From an uncultured archaeon (GTDB taxonomy: Archaea; Asgardarchaeota; Lokiarchaeia; Sigyniarchaeales; SOKP01), in NCBI GenBank assembly GCA_964486045.1, contig CAZALK010000004.1:235772-299771 (forward strand): a stretch of DNA of 64,000 nucleotides. The letters are read 5' to 3'. Made by a program: the position numbers and the translations under genes. Below the pieces are notes generated by a model that was not told where the DNA came from, did not search any database, and saw only the letters and a program-made list of their open reading frames with translations. Shown in pieces: positions 4,527 through 63,283 of the stretch; the stretch's first letter is position 1, and every line of letters begins with the position of its first letter.

Positions 4527-4651
4527 ATTTTTAACCTTAATTTTACTAATTTTATTAATATTTTTGACAAAGTATCAAATAAGAAGTTTTTTCTTATGAC
4601 CCTTAAAAAGATAAAAAAATCTTAGTGTGGTAGAAAATAATCAATATCTGT

Positions 4652-5536
4652 TTACCAATGAATAATTTTAAGGTTATCTCTGGGTTGTGTCATATATAAC
4701 CACCATTTTTCTAACCATGGAGAGTAGTTTCCCTTATCTTGAGCTGATTCAACCAATATTCTTCGTATAATTCGTAATTCTTGACTAATTGGATGATCCG
4801 CTTCAGAACCTTTAAACCGAAGATTATCTTTTGCAATAAGATCGAGGATTTTCTCAACACTTGAAGTAAGTTTTTTCCCTGTAGGGGTTTGAGATGCAGC
4901 ATAATAAAGCCATTTATCATAAGGATATGGTTCACCATCAAGAACCATAGCTGCCCTCAAAGCATGAGCTATTGCTTTAGGTAATGATAATAAAACACCA
5001 ACTGGATCCTGTCTCTCCATCGGATTATCGCATGCACGATGCTCACTTCGCATTTCTACATAATGAAAAAAGAAAAATAAATCACTTACTTCTTTTCTCA
5101 TTAGCTGACACGCTAACTTAATTAGCTCATTTCCTATACCAGACTTATCTATCACAATTTCTGCATTTCTTAATTGAAAGACAATATCCATATCGCTCTG
5201 GTCATAATAATTTTTAAGCTGATGGAAACGTTCTGAGAAATCTTCAGTTGATTCTGCATTTAAATGACCTGGTTTATTATTAATCTCAAGATCAAAAAAC
5301 AATGAATCAGAAACTCTCTTAAGATCAACCAGTTCTTCTTCGGGAATTAGGAACCAGAGATCGATATCCGAAAAAGGATCATCAAATCCTAGTGTAATCG
5401 ACCCATGAAGTATTACAGAAGCATTCTCTTGAAAGTTCTTAAGTATTGGGTGTTGTTCAAGAAATCCAGGAATATATTTCTTTATTTTTCTCACCCAATC
5501 ATCCTTCCTTTCGATATTTGGGGTAAATATTGTCAT
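4652..5536 (-). CDS. Pol-beta-superfamily nucleotidyltransferase with C-terminal helical (DUF4037-like) domain
   Basis: HGSITLGFDDPFSDIDL (GS...DxD) and PYPYDKWL. Confidence 0.7.
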   Translation of the reverse strand: MTIFTPNIERKDDWVRKIKKYIPGFLEQHPILKNFQENASVILHGSITLGFDDPFSDIDLWFLIPEEELVDLKRVSDSLFFDLEINNKPGHLNAESTEDFSERFHQLKNYYDQSDMDIVFQLRNAEIVIDKSGIGNELIKLACQLMRKEVSDLFFFFHYVEMRSEHRACDNPMERQDPVGVLLSLPKAIAHALRAAMVLDGEPYPYDKWLYYAASQTPTGKKLTSSVEKILDLIAKDNLRFKGSEADHPISQELRIIRRILVESAQDKGNYSPWLEKWWLYMTQPRDNLKIIHW

Positions 5537-38754: not shown

Positions 38755-40341
38755 TTGTCGATTAATCGAACTGCACTCTTCACGGAGCTTTTTGATCAAT
38801 TTTTACAATCAAACTCCGATGTTGAGGGGGTGATCGTGAGTGATCAGCTAGGTTTCGTCATCGCTGGTCAAAAAAGAAGCGATGTGGACATGGAAATTGT
38901 TTCAGTTTTGACGTCTATCATAAATCCAATTGTAGAAAGAATACGTGATGAGTTTGCTTTCAAAAAATTTGGTACAGCTAGCTTTGATACAGAATTCTAT
39001 AGACTCTTATTTATCTCTTTAGATGAAAGTAGAACCTTGAGCATCGTTTTAAATAATTTAGCTTCGGTAGATAAAGCTTCTCCTTATGCATACCTTCTTG
39101 CAGAAAAATCGGTACAAATTTTAAATGCTGAAGAAGGTGATAATATACAGCTAAATATTCCTAATTTTGAATATGAAACAGATGAAACCTCTTACTCCGA
39201 AAGAGTAAAAAATCAAATATATCAAATGCGATTAGATCAAGGAGGAACTTATAGATTCAAGTTTGTTGTAATAGGGGATCATGAAGTCGGAAAAACGAGT
39301 CTAGTTAGGCGATTTGTAGAAAATAAATTTTTACATGACTATCGTGCTACTATAGGATTAAATATCTTAAGTCATTCATATGAATTCTATGGAAATAATA
39401 TTATATATAGTTTATGGGATGTTGGAGCTCAACAGTATTTTAAGAGATTTCGACAAACATACTATCTAGGTGCACAAGCAGCGTTTATAGTTTTTGATCT
39501 TACGAACCGACAAACTTTTGATGATGTAATACAATGGTACCAAGAATTAGAAAGTTTTATTGGTGGTCGAGAAATCCCAATTATTCTTATCGGAAATAAA
39601 ATGGATTTAAAAGACCAGAAAGTTATTAAATATGAAGAAGGAGTGAAATTAACAAATGATTTATCTCAAAAGGCTAATCTTAAGATCTCATATATTGAAA
39701 CGAGTGCTTTATCAGGTGAAAACGTTGAAGACGCCTTTACATTAATTGCATATCATTACATATCTAAAAGTAAAGAAGAAGAGGAAGAAAGAGTTAAAAG
39801 CGATTTGTTAGATGAACTCAACTCGATCTTGAAGGAGAAAAAAGTAATTGGAGAAGACTTTGAATCTTTATTAACCCTAACCATCATTTCTGAAAATGAA
39901 TTTTGGAGCCCGGGGTTACAAATTCTGTCAGAAATAAATGGGTTAGATGAGTGTAAGAAGCTGAAAGATCAAAGAGATGAGAAATTGTATAAATTCTCTA
40001 ACGGAGTGACCATTAAAAATTATCTTTACCACAATTTTGAAGTTTCTGACGCCGATGGGATTTTTTGCATATTTGACGCTCGGTATAAGGATCATGTTGA
40101 TCCTGCATGGAGAGATGTTGTCGTGAAAATCATAAACGAAATGGAAGAAAATAAGGTAGTTTTAATTGGTATTCGAGTTTCAGATAAAAGTGATTGGTCT
40201 CTAATAATGGAAGAATTTGATGTAAATGAGTTATTAGAACAAAAGATGATATCATTGCTGTTTTTCAAGTTAGGTATTGAATATCGATTGGAAATTTACG
40301 ATCAACTTAAAGTAATGTTAAATACAATAAAATATTTATAA
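38755..40341 (+). CDS. roadblock domain plus Rab-like GTPase plus degenerate C-terminal alpha/beta domain
   Basis: VEGVIVSDQLGFVIAG (roadblock); GDHEVGKT, ATIG, WDVGAQ, YYLGA, GNKMD, ETSA. Confidence 0.85.
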   Translation: MSINRTALFTELFDQFLQSNSDVEGVIVSDQLGFVIAGQKRSDVDMEIVSVLTSIINPIVERIRDEFAFKKFGTASFDTEFYRLLFISLDESRTLSIVLNNLASVDKASPYAYLLAEKSVQILNAEEGDNIQLNIPNFEYETDETSYSERVKNQIYQMRLDQGGTYRFKFVVIGDHEVGKTSLVRRFVENKFLHDYRATIGLNILSHSYEFYGNNIIYSLWDVGAQQYFKRFRQTYYLGAQAAFIVFDLTNRQTFDDVIQWYQELESFIGGREIPIILIGNKMDLKDQKVIKYEEGVKLTNDLSQKANLKISYIETSALSGENVEDAFTLIAYHYISKSKEEEEERVKSDLLDELNSILKEKKVIGEDFESLLTLTIISENEFWSPGLQILSEINGLDECKKLKDQRDEKLYKFSNGVTIKNYLYHNFEVSDADGIFCIFDARYKDHVDPAWRDVVVKIINEMEENKVVLIGIRVSDKSDWSLIMEEFDVNELLEQKMISLLFFKLGIEYRLEIYDQLKVMLNTIKYL

Positions 40342-40492
40342 GGAAATTCTCTCATTTTATTGTATTTTTATGATAGTTGTAATATGTTATGTTCTAACTT
40401 AAGTAATCACATTTCATAATCTCCTAAGAATAACAAAAAATAATAACAAGTAAAACTATAATATAGATATAAATAAATGGGTTAGACGATCC

Positions 40493-42052
40493 TTGGTAAT
40501 AAGTAAAAATAAGATCTTTTTCGAATTGTTTAACAATTTCTTAGAAATAAATGAGGAAGTAGAAGCCGTTATTGTTTCAGATAGCGAAGGTCTTATTATC
40601 GCAGGGGAGAAGAGGAAAGATGTAGATATTGAACTTATTTCAGTTTTAACCTCAATAATTAACCCTGTTTTAGAACGTATGCGAAATGAATTTTCTTTCA
40701 AGAAATTTGGGAATACAAGTTTTGATACAGAAGATCATCGTCTTTTGTTTATCTCTGTTGATGAGGAGCACATCCTAAGCCTAGTTTTAGACAATATGGC
40801 TTCTCTTGAGAAACTCTCACCATATGGTCTATTTCTCGCTGAAAAAACAGCACAAATTTTGACCGCTGAGGAAGATGACCATATCCAATTGACTGTACCG
40901 AATTTTGAATTCGAAGCTGAAAATGTTCAAAGGTTGAAAAATCAACTATATCAGATGGATCTGACAACCCATGGAGAATATCGCTTTAAATTTGTTATTT
41001 TGGGGGATCACGAAGTTGGTAAGACTTCGATCATTCGAAGATTTGTCGAAAACAAGTATACGGAAGATTATCGGGCAACTATAGGACTAAATGTTTTGAC
41101 ACACACCTTTGAATTTTTTGGGAATGAAATTGGGGTGACCTTATTTGACTTAGGTGCCCAAAAATTTTTCCGTCGTTTTCGAAAAGTGTATTACTCAGGC
41201 GCTCAAGCAGCTTTTATCGTTTTTGATTTATCAAACCGTGAATCTTTTAGTAATGCGTTGAATTGGCATCAAGAATTAAAGGAATTTACATCCGATCAAG
41301 AAATTCCTATAGTATTAGTTGGTAATAAATCAGACTTAAACGAAGAACGACAAGTTTTTTATCAAGAAGGGGTGAAACAAGCAAATGAATTGTCTGAGAA
41401 AGAAATTATTAAGTTATCTTATATTGAGACAAGTGCCTTGACAGGAGAGAATATTGAGGATGCATTCAATTTGATATCATATCATTACGTAATGAGAAGT
41501 AAAGAAATCGAAGATGAGAGACGTGGTGACCTATTATTTGAAAAAATAACCTCTATTATTAAGAAAAAGATTGTATTAACAATATCTTTTATTTCAGAAA
41601 ATACAATGTGGAGTCCAGGTCTTCAAATTATCGCCAATATAAAGAAATTAGGAGAACAAACACTAGTTAGAGATTATGACGATGAGCAAGTCTACCAATA
41701 TCTCAATGGGTTAATCACCAAACAGCATATTTTTTCTGCGGCTGATGATATCTCAAGTTCTGATGGCGTATTTTGTATATTTGATTTAAGAGATAAAGAA
41801 CATGTCGATCCTAAATGGAAAGAAATTATTATTAAAATTATTGAAAATTCTAAAGATAAGGGAGTAGTATTAATTGGGATTAGAGCTGTGGAAAGTAGTA
41901 GTTGGTCTCAGATAATAGAAGAATTAAATGTCGATGAACGATTAGAAAATAAAGTAATTGATCTCTTCTTCTTTAGAATTGGAACAGATTTCCGCTTAGA
42001 TATTTTCGATCAGCTAAAGTCGATGCTTTCAGTTATTGATGATAAGTATTAA
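40493..42052 (+). CDS. roadblock domain plus Rab-like GTPase, tandem paralog
   Basis: VEAVIVSDSEGLIIAG; GDHEVGKT, ATIG, FDLGAQ, YYSGA, GNKSD, ETSA. Confidence 0.85.
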   Translation: MVISKNKIFFELFNNFLEINEEVEAVIVSDSEGLIIAGEKRKDVDIELISVLTSIINPVLERMRNEFSFKKFGNTSFDTEDHRLLFISVDEEHILSLVLDNMASLEKLSPYGLFLAEKTAQILTAEEDDHIQLTVPNFEFEAENVQRLKNQLYQMDLTTHGEYRFKFVILGDHEVGKTSIIRRFVENKYTEDYRATIGLNVLTHTFEFFGNEIGVTLFDLGAQKFFRRFRKVYYSGAQAAFIVFDLSNRESFSNALNWHQELKEFTSDQEIPIVLVGNKSDLNEERQVFYQEGVKQANELSEKEIIKLSYIETSALTGENIEDAFNLISYHYVMRSKEIEDERRGDLLFEKITSIIKKKIVLTISFISENTMWSPGLQIIANIKKLGEQTLVRDYDDEQVYQYLNGLITKQHIFSAADDISSSDGVFCIFDLRDKEHVDPKWKEIIIKIIENSKDKGVVLIGIRAVESSSWSQIIEELNVDERLENKVIDLFFFRIGTDFRLDIFDQLKSMLSVIDDKY

Positions 42053-45536: not shown

Positions 45537-46127
45537 CTAATCTAAAAAATAATTATTATTTAAGGAAATAACAAACTGATCTACATCTTCTTGTATATCA
45601 CCGCAAATTTTAAGCAAATGGGAATTCGTTAAGGTGATTTTCTCTACTCTAAAACCGTACTCTCTAGCTAAGATTTCACACGCATTCAAATCATCAATTT
45701 TAGTGGTGTTATACTCTGCACATTTAGAACCAAGAGAAATCTTGCGAAAACAATGGGCTCCTGCTTCTTTATCTTTCGCATCAAAAGTTCTATATCGACA
45801 TAAACCATATTTTTTTTCTGGTCTCGCTAAAAAAATAACATCTTTCATCTCAGTCGTACAATAGACAATCTCCCCAATTTTCACTTTTTCCAAGAACTTT
45901 TTGGACCGTACTTGTATTTTATCTGCAAGATAATCATGATATAAAAGCTTATCTTTAAGCCCAGGACAAATCTTTAGCGCTTCAATTTTAAAAGATTTAC
46001 TAAGTTCTACAAAGGAATTAAAAAACCTACAATAAATAATATTCTTGCGTAATATCTTAAACTGGCAACCCTTAAAAGCACTCAAGCAAATGTAAGAATC
46101 TTGGATATTCGAATAATTGCTTTCCAT
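45537..46127 (-). CDS. Cys-rich hypothetical protein; candidate immunity protein of the giant toxin-like gene
   Basis: 196 aa, co-oriented, starts 40 bp after the giant ORF stop; no recognisable motif. Confidence 0.6.
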   Translation of the reverse strand: MESNYSNIQDSYICLSAFKGCQFKILRKNIIYCRFFNSFVELSKSFKIEALKICPGLKDKLLYHDYLADKIQVRSKKFLEKVKIGEIVYCTTEMKDVIFLARPEKKYGLCRYRTFDAKDKEAGAHCFRKISLGSKCAEYNTTKIDDLNACEILAREYGFRVEKITLTNSHLLKICGDIQEDVDQFVISLNNNYFLD

Positions 46128-46167: not shown

Positions 46168-49100
46168 TCAGAATGAGCTTAAAATGTTCCGATAATTTTT
46201 AATTTTCTTCTGAGGAGCATCTGTACCAGTTAATCTTTTATACTCATCTGATATATATGCTTGCATATCACTATATTTGACGGTATAAGGAACAACAATC
46301 AGATCAACCCCATTCTTTTTGCAGAGTTCTACCTTTAATTTATCATTTTGTTGAATTCTCTGTAGTCTTTTTAATGCAACATCCCTACTTAATTTATAAA
46401 CCTTTATATGGAACTCTAAATCATAATGTTGAGGACCGTTATACTCAATTGCTAACCTCAACTTTTCGTTGTAACCATCTAATTCAAGTAATCCACCAAC
46501 CCCCTGTAACCATTTCACTGATCCCTTAGGATATTTTCTAAATCTTGCATTAAAAATATACTTCATATAAGCACGCGAAAGCATTTCTGGCTCCGTGTCT
46601 TTAGAATGTCTATTTATGAAATTCCTTATGATTCGGGATGCTTTTTGTTGGATACTAACTAAATCATCATGACTGATTGCATAATGTGTGATTTTTTCAA
46701 ATTCAGTGGTCGTTAAATCTTCTATATTCTGAATCATTCTTGTTAAAGTTTCAAGAGCAGGATTAGTATAAACTCGCTGTCCAAAAAAGCTTTCAAATAG
46801 ATTATATCTATGACCATAAAGTAATAAAGATAGAGCAATTCGTGATTTTAATGAACCTTGCGGAAATAAGGCTATCAATCTGCCAACTAACTTTCCACGA
46901 GGTGTATGGGAAATCTCTAAGGGAACTAAATCATTAGCAGAAACTGTAGCAAAAAAGATGTCAAATGATTTAATAAATGAATCGTATACATTATGGGCTT
47001 GTAAATCTTCAGAATGCTTAGATTTCAATTCACCAAATAACTTAGCATATATTGATGGTGTAATCCCACGGGAAGCGTCACTTCTCATTAAAGATAAAGT
47101 CGCTGAAAAAGCTACTTTAAATTTCTTCTCAAAAATTCTAACTGATTGCTTATCTATGATCTTGGCTTTATAAAAAATCAAAGCTAAACTTCGTGATAGT
47201 GTTAAAAGAGGTAAATAGCTAGGATTCTCTATAGTCTGGTAAACCGGTGTTTCATAATATTCTGTAAAGACATCCAAAATATCTAAAATATCGTCAAAGT
47301 GATTTTTTTCCTCTATTACTGATTTTTGGTACAATTTCAACTTAGCAATTGATAATAAATCAAAGAGAAATTTCTCTGTTACTTTTTCAAGATTTCCCTT
47401 TCCAATTTGGTATCTTGTAGCAGTAAAATAATTCTCATTGACTTCGAAAAAATTTGCAAGTTGAGTGTCAAAAAAATCAATACCAAACACTTCAGATAAT
47501 TTATCCTTTAACCGAGAGGTGAACCTGTTATAAGCATTTAGACTTACTTTCCGGCCGTTATAACGTATCAATTTATTCATAAATGCCTCTGTAGCGGTAA
47601 ACATTCGACTCAGCGCTTTAATCAATTTAGGATTAGGTAGGACTGCCGCACCGCTAACTTGTCCAACCGGGAGGATTTGTTCGTTTGGATCGTTAAATAG
47701 ATAAAACTTTCCATCAATAACAACTCCATCCTCGAGATTGTTAGGGACAGGACTTAATTTTCCATCGTCTGTTATGTCCTGCATCACATCAGAAATACCT
47801 ACCATATCAAGATCAGAAATAATTTTTGCAGATTCACTTGATGATGATTGAACCACTATATTATGAATAATGGTTTTATGTATCTTGAAGCTCTTGGAGA
47901 ACGTCTTAATCGCTGAAAATCCGGCAACAAGTGTGCCACTGAAGAACATCGGTCCGCCAATGCCGACAAGTGCAGCCCCGAGTACAAGGGAGGCTCCGGT
48001 CTTTATTATAGAGCTCCATTGGGGTTTTATTTTGATGTGAGATTCTCTTTCGCTAATTGTCTCTAGAGCAGCTTTTTCTGCTGAAATCTCATTAGTTATG
48101 TGGCGTTCGGACACTAAATTTTGAGTGTTCGTTTGGGTGTCTCCGAATAGGAATTGGGACATCGGACCTGTGATAGACTCACGTCCTCCTTCTACGAGGC
48201 TATTAATAAACACCTGCATGAAAATATCCAGACCTAAGCCTGCAACAAGCTCAGATACGACAATTTCGAGAAGGGGGTCTGTAAAAATTTCTTGCAGTGA
48301 TTCAAAAATCGGGGATGTAATGAATTTTACTAATGTCGTACTAGCTGCCATGCCGGCGATCATAGTTCCAATGGTAGGTCTAATAGCCCACTTAGAAACA
48401 TCATCTAAAAGGCTTTGTGTAAACGTTGGAATCATGGCGGCGCTTGCTCCTTTAGTTAAATATTTTGCAAGTTTACCTATACCGAAAGTAGCACCCACAG
48501 TAAGAATTGTACTTATTGTAGTTACGAAAACGGTATAACACATCTGTGACAAAGTCTCTTGTGTAATTTGAGCGTTTCTGTATTGATAGGTATATTCGAG
48601 TATGTTCTGTTCGATAGCTTGCATGGTGGCAACGCGATTTTCATCTGAATTGGTAGGATCAAGCGCTTGATATTTAGAAACTTTTATCTCGAATACATAA
48701 AACACTTCATAGTCGGGATCACCGATGTATGCACTTGCCTTAGCTTGAGCATTCGATATTAAGTAAGAATAGACACTGTCGCCAAGAGTTAAGACTCCTG
48801 TTGTTTTGCTAAATGAGAATGTGTGGTTCAGATATGAGCCAACAAATCTATTATTATGAATGTCATTACCGTTCGAGTCTATACCTAAGTATTCATATTG
48901 ATATACATCTATTTGTTGAATATCGGCATATATCATATGAATTTTATCTTCAGGGATAAGTTCAATATCTTGTGAACTTTCAGTATCAAATATTTTATAA
49001 ATAGTAAATTGGTCATTTTCAACTGTGGAGTAGCTACTAGAATCTACAAATATTGGATATTCGTGATAAAATTCGGGTATAGGGAATCCGGTATTTGCAC

Positions 49101-52100
49101 CTGCAAATTGGAAGGTTGGAACAAAAACTCCGTCGTTACGTTGCAAGTATGGGTAAAGTTTGTTGTATTCCCCGTTAGTCTCCTTGTTAATTGCGTTTTC
49201 TAAACCCATGATAGCATTTGGACTCTGAGTAGAAGTGAATGAATGTGGCGATAGCCGAGGATCATCGATATCCGAATACCCTGAATAATCACGCGTCTGT
49301 ATGGCGTAATCAAGCGAAATAGGAAAATTGGAACCCCAATTTGTCTTCTTCCACCCTTGTGGGGCGAGAATAAGGGCTCCCTTGAAGTCATGGTTGTCGT
49401 ATTCTAAAAATACATCACTGTACACACCGGCAGAACTCCCTATGATCATATCAGGGATTGATCCCCCCCATACCCTATCAGCCTCATTTTTGCTCGAGAG
49501 GGTAATAGCACCGTCATAATCTTCATTATAAAGCGTTTGAGAAGCTACTAGTTGGGTGTTATCATGAGCTTGTTTCATAGCATTGAGAGCGCTGAGAATT
49601 GCATACATGAGTATGAAACCCGCGGTGCCAGTATGTGTTACGATCCCAAACAGAGTTGAAATAAGTGCAGCCCCAACTTGCCATAAAATGTCTTGAACCA
49701 TTCTACCTTGTATAGATTGAACAAACTGACTTGAGGTTATGGCTGAGACCTCTCTCATTAGTGTACTAGTCTCTGTATTATACATTATTTTCCAAACATC
49801 ATATAATGAATCAGAGAATACATCGTCTAAGAAATATCCATCGTAAGAATTATAATCCCGCAAAAATACCCTATTTTGAGGCCCAAGGTTTGAAAAATCC
49901 CATAATCCGCTAGATGTGGAACTTATAAGATGTTTTTCACTAAAGATTTTCTTGTTTGGCTCAAAATGAGAATTGTAATCGTAATCAAAACCTATTGCAA
50001 GTACTTTCTCGTCTCTGTTAACGACGAAAATAGTGTCGAAAACTCCGTCTTGAGCGCTGGAATAAAACCAATATTCACCGCCAACGTCTACTTTTCTAGG
50101 ATTTGTTTTCGGATTGCTGTCAATAATTACTTTTCCATCATCAGGAATAATTTGGATTACTTCTAAGGTAGAAGATACCTTATCTGACCTTGAGAGAGAA
50201 TCTGGAATTGATACTGTCTTTTGAACGGTCAAGATGTTTTCAAAAACTAGTGAGTCGGTAATGGTGGTTTTACTATCAAACAGAGCAGGAACATTGTCGG
50301 TAGTATGAGTGAAGCCCAAAAGCTCTTCTAATGCAGGGGCTTGAAGTGTGAGGTCATTTGATGGATCTTCATCCCCGTTATCGTTAGTAATTACCTTTAA
50401 ATAAGTATTAGGATCGTATTTTGCAGATAGCTCATTAGCGAAAGTATCTTCATAAATCCGAACTGAGCTTACTTCGCCATATTCATAATCTCTAAAGGTA
50501 AATAAGTGGGATTTAGCAGAAGTCTCAACGAAAGAGTCACGCAACTCTGTAATGGTCCCCTCGGGGAACATTTTGGTGCTAAAAACATCATCTAAGAAAA
50601 ATCCCATGATTTCTGTAGTATATGTAGTCGTCTCTGAAAATGTACTCGATGCTTCAAATGTGATGTCTTTATCAATAAGCCCATCTAAATCGAGGTCTTT
50701 TTGAATAATTACTGTTGTCTTTGTAGTGGTGCTAGTCGTGGTGGTATTTGTTATTAATGTTCTTCGACCAAAAAGGGTTCCGACCATATAAGGAATACCA
50801 TTTTTATTTTCTACATAAAATTTATCTCCAAAAATTGTATTATCACCTGCAATCTCATAATACTTAGTACTTCTTACATCGCTGGTCTTTTGCGTCTCTA
50901 CGTTAGTTGTCTTTGTCTTGATTAAGGTGGTATGGAACACAATCTCCCCTGCGGAGTTAACTTCTCCATATTTATAAACATCGTAAATGCCGTCGATGTC
51001 AACATCCTGACTTTGTATGACTAACTCGTGTTCTCCATCAAGGCTAAAATCATAAAGCTCTAGGGCAGTTCGTTTATCATCCTTTCTTGAGAAATTTGCG
51101 AAGTCAGTAAGCTGAATATCGTTATTAAACTCATATTCTGAAGTTAAGGTATTATAAATAACAAAATTAACATTTCTCACATATTCAAGGTATTCAAAAA
51201 GCGAATCATCAGAGCCAACCGCATAATCTTCCATAAGTAGGAAGTAATCAATATCATTGTATTCGTAATCAACATAGATGCTGTCATTCTTGGTCCAAGC
51301 AGGTGGTCCTGATTTATCTTTCCCATTTTGAAGTAGCCTGAATTGAGTGTAATCAGAATAAGCACCTTCAGTAAAGTTAAGATATACAATAACCTTCTCA
51401 AAATTTCTCAAACTAATGCTATTTGGCGCTTGAATTTGAATCGATTCTCCGTCAGGGAAATTAGAATCTGCTGGATCAAAATCGACCTCAGATTCGTTGA
51501 AAAAGAGTCCTTTTATCATCATGATTTCTAGGTTTTGGGCATCGGAATAATCTTGTGATAAGTCAAATGTATCTGTATCTCCTTCCGAATTATAAGGGAA
51601 AATATTCTCAATTGCGATGTGTCGTGCTTCAAATTCGTTTAGGGATTGATCATATGCGACAGATTGATATTCTTCCAAAATCTCATCGTACCATTCAAAA
51701 GTGATATCCATTGTGCTGATATTTACGTTTGGGGTCTCAATGGTGTGCCATTCGTTCCATGCATTTTGGTCTGCCCATGAAAGGTAGAGGTATCTGAAAG
51801 TGTCAATATGAGGATTATAATATTCAAATAAGTCTTGAAGATCCGAATCTTGGTCACGGTAGGCATAATAATATTCTTCGTTGTATTGAGGATTCCAAGT
51901 AATATCATAAACCCCTGAAGTCGTTTCTTGACCACTTAAGTGTTCATCAAAATAATACCAATTACCATCACTATCAAATGCATCGAAATAATAAGTCTCG
52001 TTTATTGCAGGATCGTCTTGATATAACGGGAGAAACTCGCTTGCGTCTAGGATTATAGATTCACTATAAATATTCGCATAATCCCCCACATAAAACTTTT

Positions 52101-55100
52101 CTAAATGGTTATTTTCAAAAATATCGAAAATATCTGAATCGTATAGGGTTGTGTTTTCTTCAAATTCGAATAGAAAAACGGAATCGATTATTAATTCATA
52201 GCGTGGGTCGTTGGATGTAATAAGAATGTCTGTTATATAAGAGTGTTCAACGTTATTAGTATCCAATGTCTTGAAATCAGAGTAAATATCGTCTAGAGAC
52301 ACATTGAAAGTTGTCTGTCTGTATTCATTGTAGAGTTCACTTTCAAAGGGAGTTAAGTCTAAGGAGGTTTCCCATGCCACTAATTTATCCCTATTCTCAT
52401 AGAGATCGCCAGTAGTATAAGGTAATCCGTCATTATTTATTCCTAATAGTGAAATCTCGGCTATTGGAACATCATTGAGTTCTGTTTTATAATTTGTAAT
52501 GAAAGGACTCTTCTGAAGCACCATATCTTCTACTGTAATACCGATTGATTCCTCTAGAGAGGCGTTATATTTCAAAAACAGTAAATCTCCATTCTTCATT
52601 TTCATTGTATCACTTCCTAATATATATGAGCCTGGGAGGGAAGCATTGTTATATTCCACTATGTAGGATTGGCCATTATAGTTCTCTTCTTGTTCTCTCA
52701 CCCCTGGGCTAACTGCATAAAGGAATTCATACTGGTCATTTAGGACATAGACTTGTTCATTGAGAGAAAATATTTCTTTATCTAGGTCAACGGTTAAATA
52801 TCCATCCTCAACCTTATTAGCCTCCCATTCTATTGATTGATAAGATGGGAGTCCCTCTTCATAAAAGAAACCTAAATAATCATCGGATTGATAGAATGTA
52901 GGACTAAAGGTGATATGGGCATTATTGGCAACTGTGAAATACTGAAAATCAGGAGAATTTGGCAACCTAATATAAACTGCTCCTGAATTATCGGCGAACA
53001 TAACCGAGGTTACGTTAGTATAACCAATGTAAGTATTGTTATTATAGTAGAATGATACATTTAGATACTCCAACACATCTGGATTCAAAAGACCCATCTT
53101 TATGATAAGTGTGTCATAATCTTTCCAACCATTGCTTGCGTCGTCTAATTCCTCAGTAAGGTAATAAGTTAGGTTATTAGTGCTATTTATTATTCCATAT
53201 ACTTGTTTTACTATTCCTGAAGTAATTGGGTCGTAGGCACTGGCTCCATAAATTAAGTTATTTGACTCCAAGTTCGCAATTAGATTATTCGTTGGATCTT
53301 GGGCGACCGTCCAGCTCTCCAGGGTGATTACTTTATTACTTAGATCGGTTTGAATATGATGGAACGGTTGGTACTTATTGTGTGTCTCAGGCATGATCAT
53401 TACATAGATACTATCTCCTTCAACAAGCGTATCTTCTTCGGTAAAGGCGTCGAAATTAGTAATGGTAACTGAGTTATCCCATAAATCATAGTTTACATAA
53501 TCATCCTCAATTATTTCTTTTTGACTTGAGGAATTTATGAAATATGCAACTATTACAAAACCGTCACTGTCTCCGAGAGGATCGTTTTGGCCTAATTGAA
53601 TTTTAGCTGATTGACCGCTAGCTTCTTGTTGGCTTAACTCTGTGGAGAATGTTAGAAATGATTTTTCTTGGAGTCGATAATTAAGTGCTAGTTGATATTG
53701 ATAATTCGCTGATAGATTATAGTATAAAGGCGCTACGATGCTGGAACCGCTGAATGGGTAATAATTATTATAGAACTTCATCTCATAAGGCTGGATTTCG
53801 ATAAAGAAGTGTTTGGTGTCCAGTAAGCCGCCCTTTGTTTTGAATGAGTACTCGATAGTAAAATTCTCCCCAATGGTTAAATATTGTTTAATGCTATCCG
53901 TGAACGTTATATTGTTTCCTTGAATTGAGGATATATTTCCTAACGGTTGGATAATATTTCCAAGTGAATCTCTAATAGTGAACGTATAAGAACTACCATA
54001 AAGAATATCATCGTATTTAGTGTAATAACTTGAACTTTCTTTCATGTAATTATAGGTGACCAAAACTTCGGTGTCATTGAGAATATTAAGATATTCAAAA
54101 TATTCCTTCACCATTGTAAAAGTATAGATGGGTTCAGTGGGATAATTATCATCGTGTGACCAAGAGATCATGTATTTTTCATTTACATAACGCTCACCTG
54201 CTTCGGTTTGGATGGTAATACCAAATGGGTTTATTCTATCCCATTGTTCGTCTTGTATAATATCGTCAAATTCTCCGCCGTTAGTTAAATTCAGAGAGAC
54301 TTCATAAAATCTATCATCAAATCCGGTAAAAATAAATTCGGTAAAGTTATATTCATTTGGATAGAATTGAAATTCTTCAGTGGTAGAGGACATAAAAGCA
54401 CTCATAGGGGCATACTCGCTCAAATGATAAAATGAAGCACTAAAGGTGGTGGCTGAAGTTAAATCGGGATGATACTCAAATTGATCCCAGAAAAGATATG
54501 AGCTATCAGGGAATTTCCAATGAAGGGTAGGACTGTAGGTATTTGCAGGTTCATCTATGCTATAATCAAATTCAATAAATTCGTAGTTAATATGTAAATC
54601 AAGCTGGATGGTATTACTGGTGAGTAATAGAATGATATCTTCTTTAGTCTCATAGAAGTGAATTTGGTTTTCTCCCTGTTCAGTAATGACCAAATCGTAG
54701 TGCGTTCCTTCAGTAAGGAGAACGGTAGACGGTGTGTAAGTATCAGCATTGTCGGGGTTATATACAATATAATCATCTTGCTTTAAAGCAAATCCTTGCC
54801 ATGATTCAACCCAAACCCAAGGAGTACTTATCCTATCAATAGTATTTATATCAACATGGTCAATTCTCGTAGTCGCGTTTGGAATTTCTATAGCGAATTG
54901 AACTTCGCTTGGCAACCCTGAACTAATAATGTTATTCGAGTCAGTAAGATCAACTCGATGATGTAGATATAAATCCCCGTCTACATACATATATTGACTG
55001 GTGAGGGGTTGAGTTGATAATTCGAAATTTTGGGTATTGTAAATGTTGTCATTAAATTGACTAACATCTACGGTATAATCGCTGTACTGCCAATTCATAT

Positions 55101-58100
55101 TAAACTCTTTAGCATCAACAAACACTTCTCCGTAAGGTTCTGTACCTTTTCCAGCATACAGATTAACTTCCCCTTCGATATATTCAGGAAGTTCAAGGTC
55201 GTAAGCATTAATGTGAAGACCTAATGATTCCGTAAGCCTGTAATCTTGAGATTGTTCTGACTTAAAGGAATATGAATTGTTGTTAATAACTTCAAACGTA
55301 AGTTCATCATAATTATTTTCGTCCTTGTATAACTTAACCAATTCCCCATAGTCATTAAAACCTTCTACTGCTATTGTTACCCAAGCGTCATCAACCACAT
55401 CGTACGCTTCATTTAGTCTATCAGTGAAAATTTGAGCGTAATGTGCCGTATTTATCGTCTGGGCTACATTTATCTCATTCCTTTTATTCTTCATCGGCTT
55501 ATCGATGACCTGAAGTATCCTATCATCAGCGGTTAGTTCAAATTTATCAAAAATAACATACTGAGTAATATTCGTATTATTTCCATAGGTAAGAAAATCA
55601 ATTTCGATGTCATAGGTGGTATAACCTTTAACCGCATACATAGGCTGGAGGTTAATCTCGAAATCAAACCTATTTTCTCCGGTAGAAGGATCAATTGATA
55701 CATAATCGAAATAAGATTCTCCATCTTCAGTGGTAAAAGTAAATGTTGCAAGTATTGGTTTAAGTTTTGACACATTTCCATAAAGTACAGCATCGTCTAA
55801 GAAAAATGAACCATTGAGAACGCTGTCATAGAGCAAAGCGAGATAATTGAATGAGATAGTAGTTTTATTATCTTTTAATATAGGTATTAGTATCTTTGGA
55901 ATACCTGGATCGAGGGGATCTTGGGGATCGTCTGGAATGGTGAGTAGATTAATATCGGTGCTAGAACTGTGATTGTATAATTTATGTGAATCACGGAATC
56001 TTGAAAGTTTTCTGACAGCATCTGTCATATTCATATCAGTTCGTTGATATCCTCTATCAAGCTTATAGGAAGCAATACCATATTTAATGAATACGTCTTT
56101 TGGGCCAGTTAAATCAACATCGATTCTAATTTGTTTATTATTATTTATAATGCTAAGTTCATATAAATCCTCAATTTTTTGTCCTGTGTTATCGGTAATA
56201 TTGTAGATTTTTACATCTTCTAGGGTTATATCACTATCTATAAAACCAACGTCTAGATTAGCCATCCCGGAAATGTCTAATGTATAAGATTCATTAAATA
56301 TTGAATTATATACACCTAAATAATTTACATGATCTAGTTGGAGTGGAGTTGTATCAGTATTAAACAGTATTTCAGAGAATTCGAATCCATTGGTCTCTGA
56401 GAAAGTCCATGTCTTAACCTTATTTTCCTCAAGTTTAACCGTGTATGAAATTACTAAATCGGAGTAGTTATCTAAAGTGGTTCCACTGTTAATTACTATA
56501 CTATAATCTCCAATAACCGTATAATTATTACCGGCGCCCTCTATCAGAATTACTTCATCATATTCATATATTCCTCTCACTTCTACAATATCAATAATAT
56601 CGGTGTATCCATTAAGGTTTAATAAAATATCATCAGAATCAATTCCATAAGTATCAATATCATCCGTGTATTCAAAATATCGTTCTACACCATAGTTTTC
56701 GGCAAGATTTCCTATCCAGAACTCTCCTATATCTGAATCAGAATAAGAATCAAGTATCACTGAATCAGTTCTAATACTGGAATTTGTAAGAGTAAGGTTT
56801 AGAATAAATAATTTTTGCTCTCTATTATCGGCAATCATTCCTGTCTGATTGTAGGTGGCGTCCGCAGATATGTTCAAAATAACTTCTTTACCCATCAACA
56901 TATCACCATCCTGCCCTAGAGGATATTCAAAGTAATAAAGACCGTCATAGACGAGTGAACTAATGAAAAGATCCTCATCTCCAAGTTCAATCCATGAAAA
57001 TTCGCTCCAATCAGTAGTATCTCCGATATCCCTTGCCTTCGCTGAAACTTTGAAGTTGATATAATCAGATATACCCTCATCGCTATGTAGGGTTGCAAGA
57101 TACCCAGTGAGTCGTGGATAGATGTCTTCATAAAACGCATAATCACTTCCGAAATAAGTACCGCCCCATCCTGAATCAAACCAGTTGAGAAGGTCTAAAG
57201 TCATGGTAGGTTCTCCAAATTTCATCCAATTCTCAGGTCTCACTTCGAGACTTATAAACCTGTATACATCTTTAGTATATTCCCTTGGAATAGTGAAAAT
57301 GTTGACTTGGTATACTCCCGGAATCAGTTGGTCTAAATAATGGTCACTGATATTGAAGGTTGCTACTCCGTCACTATCAACATACGCAGAAAATTGAACA
57401 AGTCCCTCTTCAAATACACTTTCACCTGAATAATCAGTGATCATTGCTATGATTGGCATTCCATCTATTAAATAGATATTCTGGCTATCTTCAGGAATCA
57501 AGTTATTAGTCTCGAAGCTGGTCTCTAATTTGGCAATAGTCATCAATTCAGCATCAGGTACAACATCAGCCTCTGCAATCTCTACACTAAATGAAAAAGT
57601 ATCGTTTAGTTCCGAGCCCATTTGGTATACTAAGAGATTTGGAACTCCAAGCATAAGATCTTCGGGATGGATTGTAATTAAACCCTCTCCGTACCCTCCT
57701 GAATAGAATGTAGTGTCTTTATAATCATATCCGTCTAATTCGGATACTCTACCAAGGTCAAATACATTATTGTCTTGCGACATATAAAGTTGTGAAGCAT
57801 CATCAAAAGCCATATGACCTATATCATACACAGGGGCATGGAATACGCGAATATATAGCCGATAATCATCAAGCGAGTCAAAGGTTACACTTCCACTACT
57901 GAAAAGTGATTCATCGAAAATGCGGTGATGGTCTTCTATTAGATCTTCATCCAAGCTGACATTGAAAGAAACAATTCCTGTATTATCAGTTATTTGATAA
58001 TCCCAGAATAGGCTTGAGTACTCAGCGACTTGTCCTGTCTCTGAGTCTAGGTACTCCCATGACTCTGGTCTGGTGAACATTCGCGATACCGAATAAGTGG

Positions 58101-61100
58101 GGTCCAATACACCAGGACCACGCACTACTTCTTGCCCTTGTTCAGTAAACCAAGCTGTTCCTAATGCTTCGGAATCGATATAGTTTCCATCTTCATCCTC
58201 CCAATCTAGAATTTTATAATTAAGCCCTGCCTTTGGTTTGAATCCGATTTCCATCCAGACTAACTGATCTGCAAGAAAATCACCTCTCTCATCGGTTAAC
58301 TCAAATTGGAACTCATAATTATCGGTAATCGTTCTATGGAAATCAAAATAGGTATATGGTTTATCAACTTGTAAGGTCTCATAAGGACTTGTGGTTGTGG
58401 TATATACCCTATTTTGAATAGTAGCCCATTGATCGAATGTACGCGAAAATTCGGTTGGAATATAGGAAATCTTACTCTGTTTTCCATTGACAGTTAAAGT
58501 AAAGACTTCATTAACAGAAAAGCTGGTATTATATACACTATTAAATCCAGAATAATCAACCCCGATATACTGATCATTATAGGCTGCCAAGGTGGGAGGA
58601 AGGTAGATAAGCCTCATGATAGTTTCAACGTTTAATGGAAACTGTAATCCATTTTCACCCATATAAAAACTATAGTCAAAATTACCATCCTCTCTTAACG
58701 GAACTCTTGCAAGTGGTTTCCATAATCCATCAGTATCATCAAGAAATTCAAGGATCATATTTTTTACAGGATTGATTTCCTCGGTGAGATAGCCATAATA
58801 GGCTAGAAAGTATGCATCATCAATTTCGTAATTAGGAGTAACTGAGCTATAAAAAGTGTAGAATGTTATGTAATTGTTATTGACTCCTGTAATATCATAG
58901 TCGATACCGTAAATCATGGGAGTAACGGAAATTGCATTATCTACCATAACTTTAATCGTTGAGTTTACTAAGAAGGTACTCATTGCATAGTGGGTTAGTT
59001 TCAGCTTTGGGATATAACCATATTCAACCTTTAGATTAATTGGACCAGACTCTGTATAGGTGATATTAAGAGCGTCAACACCACTCTCGTTTACGATGCT
59101 ATAGGTGTAATAGCTGTCGTTCAAGAGCTCAAACTCATCAACGCTTATTTCCTTCCACACGTTTTTAAGGGATATGATTCCTGAGCCGATGGAAGAATTA
59201 ACCACTTGGATCGTTTGGTCTTGAGCAACTGAAGTGTATAAGGAACTATTCTCAAATATAGGATTTACATCAAGAATCTCTTTATCGAATTGTCTGGAAT
59301 TTTCCCATTCAAAGGTCTCATAGCTAAACATCCTAAAGTCAACGGGAATAATTACATCCTCGATATCTTCAAAAGTGACAGGGGTGATTATTCTTCCTTG
59401 GATGACTTTATAGGTAAGTAATAGATTAGTATCATATGGAATTAATTGGCTGTTGTCGGAAGTCCAATTGATAATTAACATGAATTTATTAGGATGATCG
59501 GTACGATAGTAGGCATAATAGCTGATCCAGCTGTCTTCGATTACATTGGTTGCATAATTAAAACTACTGCCGTTTACCACTTCGAATAAGGGAGTGATTT
59601 CATTGTAATTTTCTCTATCGATAAATTCTAGCTTAAAGTTATTTTTATCAATAAATTCTGTTTCCCCGATGAGACCATTAAGATCAATTTCATATTCAGT
59701 AAGTGTAAATTCACCAATTGGATCGGTTGCGATGTAAGGAATAATTTCACGCTCTCGGTAATAGGTAGAATTATCTAAAATATAGCCCATTAAATTCAAT
59801 TCTTCTTCAAAATCCACATCAAACTTTGTATTAAGAGTAAAAGTATAATCAGGATTGAAAACAACTTCTCTTTCGTTTTTTAAGGCTATTTGTGATAAAA
59901 TCTGGGGGATCAGTTCAATCTCGACAGAATTAGTCGAATTTACAATCTCTTCAGCAACTGTTGGATAAAGTGTAAAGATAAGATCATAACTGCCCAACTC
60001 CTCTGTGACACTAAATCTAGAATGGAATTTATCAACCGAATTATCCCATTCTAAAAATGAGACACCTAAGATAGTACCAGTCAAATTATCGGTCATTACA
60101 AGGAAGGGAGTTGCCATTTCATATAATGGAAATGGTGTAATTGCGCTATTTATCCTGAAGTAAATATCGATAATATCCGTAAAGAATAGATCATTTGGCT
60201 GGTTCAAAGCTAAGGTTTGAAGGTTGCTAAACGCTTCCATTTCTGTAATTTGGGAATCAAAAGTATCTAATTCGATACTCATGCTTTCATCTACAATAAA
60301 ATTGTATTGATAATCATTAAAGTAAACTGTTAAGGCTGAATCATTAGCTAAAATATCATAAAAGCTCATTTGTGAAATACCGAATATCTGATATGGGAAG
60401 TTAATAATGGTAAATCCGGTATTAGGATCATACATTGAAACACTTCCCGGCCATACTGGAGCGTCGGATACTACAAAACTAACGGAATGAATCTTGGTTA
60501 TATCAAACAAGGTCTCTAGATTTGACGCTGTAAGGCTGGCAAAATCGATATAAATTGGTATCTCGAGGAGTTCAGACAGTCCAGGAATAACACGTTTATA
60601 CTGTGATGCGTCTTTGAAGTATTTATCGAAATCGAGTGAATCCATACTATATACAAATCGGTTATCATCAAAATCAATAAAGAGGATTTGGAGCCTTTCG
60701 ATTGTACCGTGAGTTGAATAAATATTTGGAACTAAAATCTTTAGGAATAATCCGTCTTTCTGAGTGTCTTTAATGACTTTTGCATAATCCGAACCATAAT
60801 AATTGAAAAACACTAGGTCATCCTCGATATTATATTGGCTAAAGTTTACATTCCACGAGACCGAGCCGTTGATAGACACAGTAAAATCAATTTCGTCAAA
60901 GTTGTGTTTAATATCATACTTTCCGGTCTCACCATTATAGAGGTAGCTAAATACTTCTGAATAATTGATATAATCAAGAAGCCTAAATCCTTCACGCTCA
61001 GAAATATCCATAACTGAGGTCCGTTCTTCTTGTAAGAAGTAAGAAAGGACTAGCGGATCTTTTTGGGAAGCGTGTTTTGCAAATGCATAATAATTTGTTC

Positions 61101-61821
61101 CCGTTGCATCCCAGTTTAATTGAAAGTCAAGAGGATAATTAGATACCAACGTATTTTCAAAAATATTTTCGGAATATAAAATTAAATCGTCAAGACTATC
61201 AAACCTAACTTCATATCTTTGTGAGGTTTCGTTCCATAAGGTAATTTCCAAATAATAATTTCCAGATTTGACTTTAATCGAATGATTCTGTAATTCACTA
61301 TTGTCAGCACCGATTAGCGTGAAATTCACGATAGTTCCAATTCCTTGATAAATTTCATTGACATTAATTAGATTATTATCAAATTGGATAGTAACTTCAT
61401 TTGATACTAGAATTCGTGGTATTGTCGCATCATAGTTGTATGAATCACCAAGATAACTGGAGTTAGTAATAGTATTACCTGCAGCATCAGTTATTCTGAA
61501 TTCAATAGTATAATAATACTTAGTATGGTCTTCGAAATTGTTTACAGGTACTCCTAAATCAAATAATGTGGTCTCAATTCCACTTATTGGACTAAATCCA
61601 GAAGTGTATAGAGAAGTATTACTCATATCGAATACATTTATCTGATACTCAACGGAAATTTCGTCTATATAATAATAGTTAGTATGATTAATAATGCCTT
61701 GCAGATTATCAGTTGTTAAAATGTTAAACAGTGTCCATGGAGCAGCAAAATTGTTTAATGAATAATCGGTAGCTCCATCTCCTATTGATGTAACTGAAGT
61801 AGGATCTTCAAAATCAAGCAA
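46168..61821 (-). CDS. giant (>5,200 aa) surface/secreted-type protein with C-terminal PD-(D/E)xK nuclease; polymorphic-toxin-like; probably 5'-truncated
   Basis: 15.6-kb open frame. Ig-like motifs ([17 protein letters not shown]), many NxS/T sequons, DxDxDG motifs, a hydrophobic helix block, and C-terminal [22 protein letters not shown]...[21 protein letters not shown]. Confidence 0.85.
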   Translation of the reverse strand: [5217 protein letters not shown]

Positions 61822-61850
61822 AACTGTGTAAGTAAGGTTTAAATAATAAA

Positions 61851-62120
61851 AAGATATTACATACAGCAGATTCAGCTACGTTTTCAAATGAATTAAAATC
61901 TCTTAAAGATGAAATTGATCTGTGCTTTGTTGCCTGTTTTGAGAGCAATTTTAATGATTATCTAAAATTTTTAAAAAAAATTACTCTAAAATTGGTAATT
62001 CCATATCATTTTACTACAGAAAAAGAAGGTGGAGCTAAAAAATTAACAGGATTTCTTCTTGATAATGATATTAATTCAACTTTTCTTTCAATTGGAAAAG
62101 AATTTGAATTTTCCTTTTAG
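61851..62120 (+). pseudogene. 5'-truncated MBL-fold hydrolase (C-terminal half)
   Basis: Manual translation KILHTADSATFSNELKSLKDEIDLCFV...LKLVIPYHF...EFEFSF*; in-frame TAA at 61833 and no start codon. Confidence 0.7.
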
Positions 62121-62955: not shown

Positions 62956-63283
62956 AAATTCTCCCATACTCTTGGGTAGCTCTATCTTTAAACCACTCAA
63001 TAAATTCAGGAAATTTATTTTCATCAATAATATCTTCAATATTATATATATGAAGATATCCTTACCTCGAAAAGTAAACACCTAATTTTTTTATTTCGCT
63101 ATCTCCTGGCATACTATCAATCCCATCAATTCTATATAGAGTGTAATAACCAATCAATTGATCATAATACTCTCGTTTCATTTGAAATATTTTAGTAGTT
63201 TTTATATCTATTAACATCTCATCTATAACTAAATCAGCATCTGCACCTCCAACCATAATAGAAGCATTACCGAAAGTAGGATC
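62933..63283 (-). pseudogene. 5'-truncated PD-(D/E)xK nuclease-family gene with internal stop
   Basis: DPTFGNASIMVGGADADLVIDEMLIDIKTTK...DQLIGY...LGVYFSR*GYLHIYNIEDIIDENKFPEFIEWFK; the frame continues past TAA at 63062-63064. Confidence 0.75.

Follow-up and report, generated by a model that had tools for sequence, protein, structure and literature searches.

A Vsr-like nuclease domain in an exchangeable C-terminal cassette of giant Lokiarchaeal proteins: a candidate effector-partner system

In a 64,000-nucleotide stretch of an uncultured Lokiarchaeal genome (GenBank assembly GCA_964486045.1, contig CAZALK010000004.1, positions 235,772 to 299,771; hereafter the window), a single open reading frame (ORF) encodes a protein of 5,217 amino acids that ends in a nuclease domain with the fold of the Vsr endonuclease. 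We propose, with a probability of roughly 60%, that this protein belongs to a family of giant proteins forming a polymorphic effector-partner system of conflict or recognition, similar in organization to toxin-immunity systems, in which the Vsr-like domain is the payload of the window copy. We observe the fold of the domain, the conservation of its residues, the polymorphism of the cassette that it terminates, the linkage of the genes and a natural chimera. The proposal is made because the copies carry mutually unrelated cassettes, because the genes downstream are specific to the cassette, and because of the chimera, a cassette of HNH type paired with a leucine-rich repeat (LRR) protein, and copies that resemble orphan modules.

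Under this proposal, the body of the protein would consist of a huge, acidic ectodomain, free of Cys and rich in N-x-S/T sequons, and of a hydrophobic block ending in a Gly/Ala-rich junction to which an exchangeable cassette is attached. Recombination at the junction would move cassette and partner gene jointly onto the conserved body. The nuclease, terminal payload of a cassette of ~530 residues, would act as a DNA-degrading effector, while a protein of 196 residues encoded by the next gene would be its cognate neutralizer in the cytoplasm of the producer. Delivery of the cassette into another cell is a distinct element of the proposal, to which we give somewhat less than an even chance.

Results

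The C-terminal nuclease domain

Stops occur throughout 46168-46600 on the plus strand, so that the region of interest lies on the minus strand, and the residues quoted for it in an earlier sequence-only reading are found verbatim at the C-terminus of the giant minus-strand ORF, the translation of which closes on SSF. The features concerned are:

46168..61821, minus strand: giant ORF, 5,217 amino acids, TTG start, a single uninterrupted frame in translation
46171..46620, minus strand: Vsr-like PD-(D/E)xK nuclease domain, residues 5068-5217 (AlphaFold2, VIA, BFVD, PHROGs)
46333..46587, minus strand: span of the putative catalytic codons, from conservation across family domains
46585-46587, 46477-46479 and 46444-46446, minus strand: putative catalytic codons E5079, D5115 and E5126
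46426-46428, 46342-46344 and 46333-46335, minus strand: putative catalytic codons H5132, D5160 and K5163

An AlphaFold2 model of the tail, obtained with the family alignment as input, reached a pLDDT of 93.6 and a pTM of 0.87, with the element order alpha-beta-beta-beta-alpha-beta-alpha (helices at 10-23, 79-102 and 116-131; strands at 49-51, 56-61 and 106-111). Exhaustive structural comparison of this model with 48,161 PDB representatives (VIA) placed the Vsr endonuclease first (1cw0_A, Z 9.8, rmsd 3.9 A, 120 residues), followed by RAP-domain proteins (Z ~8), the Vsr-like homing endonuclease I-Bth0305I (Z 8.1) and the DUF559 protein NGO0050 (Z 7.7), with Can2, Hjc, TnsA, VRR-NUC and restriction enzymes further down. 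Vsr was also first in Foldseek against the PDB, the check that the sequence-only reading had suggested, at a probability of 0.97 but a marginal E value of 0.08. Among viral structures (BFVD), the model matched giant-virus proteins annotated as 'restriction endonuclease', zinc-ribbon or treble-clef proteins (E 5e-11, TM 0.72-0.78, identity 30-40%) and additionally phage homing-endonuclease, DUF559, DUF2726 and VSR entries, and in PHROGs the tail falls in endonuclease families labelled homing or HNH (phrog_559, E 6e-13). Sequence searches of the PDB, with the tail alone and with the family profile, returned nothing meaningful (best match RadA, E 1.7).

In an alignment of the tail with 34 short members of the family, D48, E59, G62, H65, D93, K96 and C100 (tail numbering) are invariant. 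The signature E5079...D5115...E5126..G..H5132...D5160..K5163 is retained in 143-152 of 153 family domains and is intact in the window copy. Judged by its modelled fold, the tail is a Vsr/DUF559-like PD-(D/E)xK domain, which bears out the fold call of the sequence-only reading; the Asp of ELD (D5115) and the Glu of IEY (E5126) singled out there proved invariant, or nearly so, in the 153 aligned domains. The tail looks catalytically intact and would be expected to possess DNase activity.

Extent of the nuclease family

Used as the query of an exhaustive phmmer search, the final 200 residues matched 4,775 representative clusters at E<=1e-3, 584 of them even at E<=1e-10; the tail motif is therefore far beyond chance. 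Placement in the Vsr/DUF559-like branch, also claimed earlier, holds for the fold, including the structural match to NGO0050, but does not extend to membership of Pfam DUF559 (PF04480), which was rejected: its model leaves the tail unmatched even at E<=10 and has no match in the whole genome despite four copies of the nuclease domain there, although control genomes do match. DUF559 is present in just 11% of one neighbouring Atlas cluster. Pfam DUF2726 (PF10881) scored a sub-threshold 13.9 bits against the tail (cut-off 24.7, E 0.046) and matched 3 of 35 relatives (best E 1.8e-5), and from these scores looks like a distant sister family rather than one to which the tail belongs. Because the DUF559 model fails to match, the nuclease family is best described as an uncurated and unnamed sister family inside the Vsr-like branch; neither a curated Pfam or NCBIfam model nor a tested function turned up for it. 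What is delineated here is thus a very large Vsr-like family common to giant viruses, phages and Lokiarchaeia.

By itself the nuclease domain is common in the family, occurring in 26 of 71 genomes and in many architectures. Its three other copies in this genome stand beside treble-clef zinc fingers, in proteins devoid of transmembrane (TM) helices.

Such a distribution bears on the suggestion that the domain has a non-toxic role in DNA handling or is a selfish insertion, namely a homing-endonuclease-like or repair-type nuclease carried by a membrane protein, for example for tethering or processing DNA at the membrane. The nearest annotated relatives are indeed phage homing or intron-encoded endonucleases and giant-virus nucleases, and the same domain is frequent in other Lokiarchaeal proteins with treble-clef zinc fingers. 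Against this, the domain is always in frame and ends a conserved cassette of ~530 residues that co-evolves with the helical region preceding it, and the unrelated alternative cassettes, the cassette-specific partners and the chimera, all described below, are left unexplained. We regard such a role as highly improbable, and a homing-endonuclease insertion was rejected as the principal interpretation on account of the alternative cassettes.

A swappable cassette on a conserved body

The nuclease is the terminal part of a cassette that starts just past a conserved junction, at about residue 4665-4690, and that comprises a helical region in addition to the nuclease:

47827..48054, minus strand: conserved junction, residues ~4590-4665, with the Gly/Ala-rich hydrophobic segment GASLVLGAALVGIGGPMFFSGTLVAGFSAI between Lys-rich flanks
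46621..47751, minus strand: basic helical region of the cassette, residues ~4691-5067, pI 8.9, no N-x-S/T sequon

Four further copies of the body are present in the assembly, a metagenome-assembled genome (MAG) of 5.18 Mb in 45 contigs (99% complete, 7.8% contamination). These copies, named after their contigs, are C7 (at least 9,498 residues), C8 (at least 9,447), C23 (2,010) and C13 (669). Because the contig starts cut both of the longer frames (C7:1-28494(+) and C8:1-28341(+)), the full C7 and C8 proteins must be longer still, their N-termini being unassembled. The body of the window copy is 56-93% identical to C7, C8 and C23, with nothing in common beyond residue ~4690; at the DNA level, homology to the paralogues starts abruptly at window position 61842 and ends at 47855-47917. 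The last element common to all copies is the junction motif, ...KPQWSSIIKTGASL.LGAAL.GIGGPMFFGA.L..GFSA.QSISK.FK.QK.IIHNIV... The metagenomic relatives P0155-P0158 also contain this motif, and their similarity breaks at the same point. In its exact form the motif was seen in five copies in this genome and, among 121 genomes sampled, in a single other one. Past it, the cassettes measure ~500-660 residues and belong to at least seven unrelated types. Two further giant frames of ~3,400 residues, distantly related to the body (23% identity), lie at contig ends (C9:3-10277(+) and C10:187932-198077(-)), and giant genes present in repeated copies seem to rank among the chief reasons why the assembly of this MAG is broken.

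The window type of cassette recurs in Lokiarch_38620 of Candidatus Lokiarchaeum GC14_75 (69% identity), which is the closest named relative and lies in a locus fully syntenic with the window, and in the metagenomic proteins P0003 and P0004. The complete cassette turned up here, in GC14_75, in two metagenomic proteins in which TM segments and cassette stand alone and, distantly, in a protein of genome G210, but nowhere else; the helical region is likewise common only to Lokiarch_38620, P0003, P0004 and the distant G210 protein. A search of giant-length proteins for the C-terminal module returned the window's own protein only. The sole PDB sequence match to the helical region (46621-47751; profile positions 277-375), a borderline one to the C-terminal part of Legionella SidD (6rp4, E 0.0011), was treated as unreliable and is probably spurious.

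An indication of exchange comes from P0154, a sequence from an ENA metagenome. Its body is 81-97% identical to the window copy and just 40-83% identical to C8, while from its residue 1501 onward, a switch corresponding to giant residue ~4685, it is 93-99% identical to the C8 cassette; the 162-residue product of its downstream gene is 94% identical to that of C8. As read from these alignments, P0154 is a natural chimera of a window-type body with the cassette and the partner of C8. Its composition implies that recombination has placed both cassette and partner on another body, with the junction as the exact point of exchange.

Of the five cassettes in this genome, two terminate in a nuclease fold, one Vsr-like and one HNH. 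The latter belongs to C7, whose cassette end (...IIHHIDFNKENNQLSNYLWIRSENHKTN...; L044:1501-1992) contains the HNH motif (IIHHIDFNKENNQLSNYLW...H), a signature recognized weakly by Pfam HNH_3 and, independently, by phrog_15471 (E 2.3e-4); the same cassette has a weak match to EAD1, an effector-associated domain (E 0.003). The C13 ORF (L047:3744-5417(-), 669 residues) starts just before the last hydrophobic segment and comprises the junction motif and a cassette of its own, with a weak ubiquitin-like match below the cut-off (E 1.3e-4). It looks like an orphan module.

The downstream partner genes

Downstream of the giant ORF lies the gene that we propose as its partner:

45537..46127, minus strand: gene for a Cys-rich soluble protein of 196 amino acids, 40 nt downstream of the giant ORF; candidate immunity or regulatory protein

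The genes following the cassettes are cassette-specific: they encode proteins of 196, 445, 162 and 199 residues that are mutually unrelated, C23 having none on the same strand. The C7 gene (L044:2098-3432) encodes a 445-residue LRR protein (LRR_4, E 2.7e-29), and the HNH cassette and its LRR neighbour are, by their domain matches, a possible nuclease-inhibitor pair. The C13 gene (L047:3106-3702(-)) encodes a DUF2695 protein, a family on which a literature search found nothing functional.

The 196-residue partner contains 10 Cys (pI 8.7), with no TM segment in its translation and no Pfam match. In its AlphaFold2 model (pLDDT 87), a long helix is combined with an SH3/Tudor-like barrel and with a domain of ferredoxin-like type, and its fold matches are generic ones only: SH3/Tudor-like, ferredoxin-like and, at low TM, an MscS-like order of domains. 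The ESM Atlas returned no usable match. The protein is 68% identical to its counterpart in the syntenic GC14_75 locus and 39% identical to that beside P0003, and it is co-conserved with the nuclease cassette in three loci (L012, L008 and L024). Homologues occur in 17 of 301 sampled Asgard genomes, nearly all in one family; among 14 loci, the partner directly follows a nuclease module in four, stands beside short nuclease remnants in two and is alone in eight. The remnants are ORFs of 89-95 residues (L018:2168-2452 and L021:2162-2428) that match just the C-terminal half of the nuclease, directly upstream of the partner homologue; to judge by these partial matches, they look like degraded nucleases beside a retained partner in two other genomes.

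Topology of the carrier body

Residues 1-4040 of the window protein contain no hydrophobic segment and no Cys, are acidic (pI 4.05) and carry 66 N-x-S/T sequons, as compared with 46 +/- 6.5 expected from composition. They are followed by the membrane-associated part:

47908..49689, minus strand: block of hydrophobic segments with an acidic loop of ~350 residues, residues 4045-4638, from hydropathy and loop charges

By hydropathy, the segments are 4045-4082 (two short halves), 4428-4449, two amphipathic ones and 4609-4638. The loop at 4083-4427 is acidic and resembles the ectodomain; 4428-4449 is a clean segment of 22 residues followed by a +3 loop; and 4609-4638 is a 30-residue Gly/Ala segment flanked by Lys-rich stretches on both sides. 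The final ~530 residues are basic (pI 8.9-9.6) and have no sequon where 3.8 are expected. From these properties, the hydrophobic block is predicted to be the membrane-embedded part between ectodomain and cassette. The most likely topology, and the simplest, has the ectodomain outside and the cassette in the cytoplasm of the producer, because the C-terminus is basic and free of sequons and thus conforms to the positive-inside rule. The earlier description of an otherwise extracellular-looking protein therefore fits the acidic, sequon-rich ectodomain but not the C-terminal region. A distant relative in another Lokiarchaeal genome, an ORF of 14,473 residues (G317:C21:2578-45997), has at least 12 strongly hydrophobic N-terminal helices and shares the hydrophobic module distantly (24% identity), ~2,000 residues ahead of its C-terminus. 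Its N-terminal TM helices, taken together with the C-terminal module, make plausible a giant outside loop with both ends inside.

This topology is the basis of the main rival to our proposal, in which the cassette is a membrane-tethered effector acting in cis. The giant protein would then be a transmembrane sensor or adhesin, and an event at its ectodomain, such as virus attachment, contact with a foreign cell or envelope damage, would activate the tethered nuclease in the cytoplasm, where it would cut incoming or own DNA as a defence or abortive response, the partner being a regulator or inhibitor. The cassette is placed in the cytoplasm by the positive-inside pattern, by its own basic and sequon-free character and by a partner that is soluble and rich in Cys, and the G317 relative is anchored by its N-terminal helices and has its hydrophobic module near the C-terminus. 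There are also proteins in which TM segments and cassette occur with no ectodomain (P0004/L009 and G210), and other cassettes weakly match intracellular adaptor-type domains (EAD1, ubiquitin-like, helix-turn-helix (HTH)). Conserved sensors with variable effector modules are, moreover, common among defence systems. On the other side, PADLOC gave no match to a defence family, no signalling domain lies between ectodomain and nuclease, and small downstream genes that are effector-specific and transfer together with the cassette would be unusual for a defence system, as would orphan truncated copies. All told, we consider action in cis unlikely, although no other rival comes as close.

Status of the window copy

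The window copy is short in comparison with C7 and C8, and its residue 1 aligns to residue ~4144 of theirs:

61822..61878, minus strand: 5' truncation point; paralogue homology from 61842, in-frame stop at 61876-61878

Upstream of 61842 the DNA is rich in A and T and lacks any homology to the paralogues. The stretch from the giant gene to the contig end has a GC content of 26%; a 64-residue ORF within it (63062-63256, minus strand; ...DADLVIDEMLIDIKTTK...) resembles the D...(D/E)xK motif of PD-(D/E)xK enzymes and may be a fragment of another nuclease gene. As the truncation lies 2.2 kb from the contig end, it could be an assembly artefact. An intact N-terminus with a signal peptide was sought in the shorter relatives from G210, G171 and G207, all of which begin mid-body, and none was found. 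To judge from their alignments, the window copy, C23 and C13 are orphan-like truncated copies.

The window gene might accordingly be a silent, decapitated copy, kept open as an unexpressed reservoir by gene conversion with full-length paralogues, so that its nuclease tail would be inert unless recombined onto an expressed copy, in the manner of orphan Rhs/CdiA-CT modules or pilS cassettes. This concerns the status of the window copy and is compatible with both a toxin-immunity-like and a cis-acting role of the family. Homology begins abruptly 21 nt upstream of the first possible start, with an in-frame stop and no signal peptide; C13 and C23 are likewise truncated; and the synonymous divergence (dS) varies along the body in a mosaic fashion (0.3-1.9) suggestive of tracts of gene conversion. 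However, the 15.6-kb frame is uninterrupted in a genome of 33% GC, and its ratio of non-synonymous to synonymous divergence (dN/dS 0.14 against C7 and 0.09 against C8, at dS 0.6-1.4) equals that between the large copies (C7 against C8, 0.115); the window copy is thus either functional or kept open by gene conversion. The locus, its cassette (69%) and its partner (68%) are kept at the syntenic position in Lokiarchaeum GC14_75, and the truncation itself may be the artefact mentioned above. A silent copy appears to us improbable.

Arguments against a toxin-immunity-like system

Several observations weigh against the proposal that the family is a polymorphic effector-partner system. Three of the five cassettes are without an identifiable enzymatic domain, and the weak matches seen among the cassettes (EAD1, ubiquitin-like, HTH) are of intracellular type. 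The nuclease domain is not a dedicated toxin domain, since most occurrences of its family are in viral proteins or in zinc-finger proteins of the Lokiarchaeial cytoplasm. As for the partner, searches with its modelled fold revealed no recognizable immunity fold, it is basic (pI 8.7), unlike many nuclease inhibitors, which are acidic, and 8 of its 14 homologues do not adjoin a nuclease. Because the genome is a MAG with 7.8% contamination, some of the 'paralogues' could be co-binned strains.

Export of the cassette meets further objections. In the 5,217 residues there is no secretion-system domain, processing protease or pre-toxin motif (VENN, PxxxxDPxGL, LXG and others), and the 5'-truncated window copy has no signal peptide or N-terminal export signal. 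It lacks the N-terminal ~4,100 or more residues of its paralogues, whose own N-termini are unassembled. The charge pattern places the cassette in the cytoplasm of the producer, and we know of no archaeal route for moving such a cassette out. The sequence-only reading had envisaged a delivered warhead, arguing that a DNase at the tip of such a protein makes sense only if delivered elsewhere. As argued, this is invalid, since the protein is not wholly extracellular and its C-terminus faces the cytoplasm by the positive-inside rule. The conclusion of delivery may still prove right: the polymorphic toxin-like architecture speaks for it, and the cytoplasm-facing cassette, with no export signal or route visible, speaks against.

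Annotation and local genomic context

Pfam returned no family for the whole 5,217-residue protein, searched in three slices, or for its 250-residue tail (E<=0.1), and neither NCBIfam nor PADLOC gave a relevant match. Neighbouring genes in the window, which has a GC content of ~33%, encode two Ras-family GTPases with long N-terminal extensions, a RING and TPR protein, ThiC/ThiD and isopropylmalate dehydrogenase. Gene content and base composition jointly indicate an Asgard archaeon. The GTPases (38755-42052, plus strand) are tandem, co-linear proteins of ~520 residues with a Ras/Roc-type domain at residues ~165-330 and long extensions at both ends, and they are kept in the syntenic Lokiarchaeum GC14_75 locus.

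Discussion: comparison with known systems

The tail has the same core fold and element order as Vsr, NGO0050 (DUF559) and I-Bth0305I ('EDxHD') of the Vsr-like branch, with D...E..G..H on strands 2-3 followed by a helix with D..K. It differs from Vsr and DUF559 proteins in having no significant Pfam match to either family, and from the stand-alone Vsr repair and homing enzymes in being the end of what is predicted to be a 5,217-residue membrane protein. Its true sequence family is that of the giant-virus and phage 'restriction endonuclease' or zinc-ribbon (DUF4379 treble-clef) nucleases, including iridovirus proteins labelled 'Uvr/REP helicase', which have the same invariant residues. Unlike these relatives, the window copy has no zinc finger; ahead of it lie membrane segments and the helical region specific to its cassette.

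In its organization, the family resembles the bacterial polymorphic toxins (CdiA-CT/CdiI, Rhs-CT/RhsI, MafB; Zhang et al. 2012, as cited in PMC6393860), which likewise combine a large body and a sharp junction with unrelated C-terminal cassettes, nucleases among them, with cassette-specific downstream genes and orphan truncated modules, and with recombination of cassette and partner. Unlike them, it has no TPS/FHA, YD/Rhs, PAAR, LXG or VENN-type element (Pfam, 5,217 residues), a hydrophobic segment in the membrane takes the place of a soluble pre-toxin motif as its junction, its cassette is predicted to face the cytoplasm, and its host is a single-membrane Asgard archaeon. Membership of the CdiA or Rhs-YD families was rejected: TPS, FHA, VENN, YD repeats and PxxxxDPxGL are all missing, and the junction is a Gly/Ala-rich hydrophobic one. 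For other archaeal lineages, there are predictions of polymorphic toxins that contain PD-DExK domains (PMC6393860).

Related in setting is the hypervariable Ig-domain gene module of Thermococcales, in which large surface proteins with variable downstream genes have been proposed to serve in conflict or self/non-self recognition (PMC8416519), and giant genes of Asgard archaea, including Lokiarchaeota, have been noted as uncharacterized (PMC8813620, PMC11573180). In the abstracts of these papers and the passages found, no family is described that joins a membrane junction to a swappable nuclease cassette. Lokiarchaeum ossiferum has been described as having complex surface proteins and no S-layer (PMC9834061). 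A literature search found no description of the giant cassette-bearing Lokiarchaeal family, and a swappable nuclease-cassette system resembling bacterial toxin-immunity systems appears to be so far undescribed in Asgard archaea.

To our knowledge, antagonism and self/non-self recognition are essentially unexplored in Asgard archaea, which lack an S-layer, have conspicuous surface proteins and form the intimate cell contacts that feature in models of eukaryogenesis. The locus described here is a concrete candidate for study, in which surface proteins of more than 9,000 residues combine with a junction for recombination, exchangeable tails that bear nucleases and partner genes matched to them. 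Should the cassettes act in cis, they would constitute a new type of membrane-tethered nuclease effector. Should they be toxins, the family would represent the first polymorphic system of toxin-like type on giant Asgard proteins, with a membrane junction and a cytoplasm-facing architecture unlike the bacterial ones.

A hypothetical analogy is offered by the SitA/SitI proteins of Myxococcus, polymorphic, membrane-anchored lipoprotein toxins of nuclease type that have immunity genes and are transferred by TraA-mediated exchange of outer membranes. The likeness would lie in polymorphic membrane-anchored effectors with partner genes and involves no homology, and we know of no demonstration of membrane exchange in Lokiarchaea. 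It nevertheless suggests a speculative model that we hold to be rather unlikely, and in which the giant surface proteins mediate kin discrimination dependent on contact or membrane fusion: the ectodomain would recognize cells on protrusions, the junction would anchor or translocate the polymorphic cassette (Vsr-like DNase, HNH and others) on the cytoplasmic side, the cassette would cross by membrane exchange or cell bridges, and only cells with the cognate partner would survive. Such a system, if real, would be an Asgard counterpart of contact-dependent inhibition and of the toxins transferred by outer-membrane exchange, in the lineage closest to eukaryotes.

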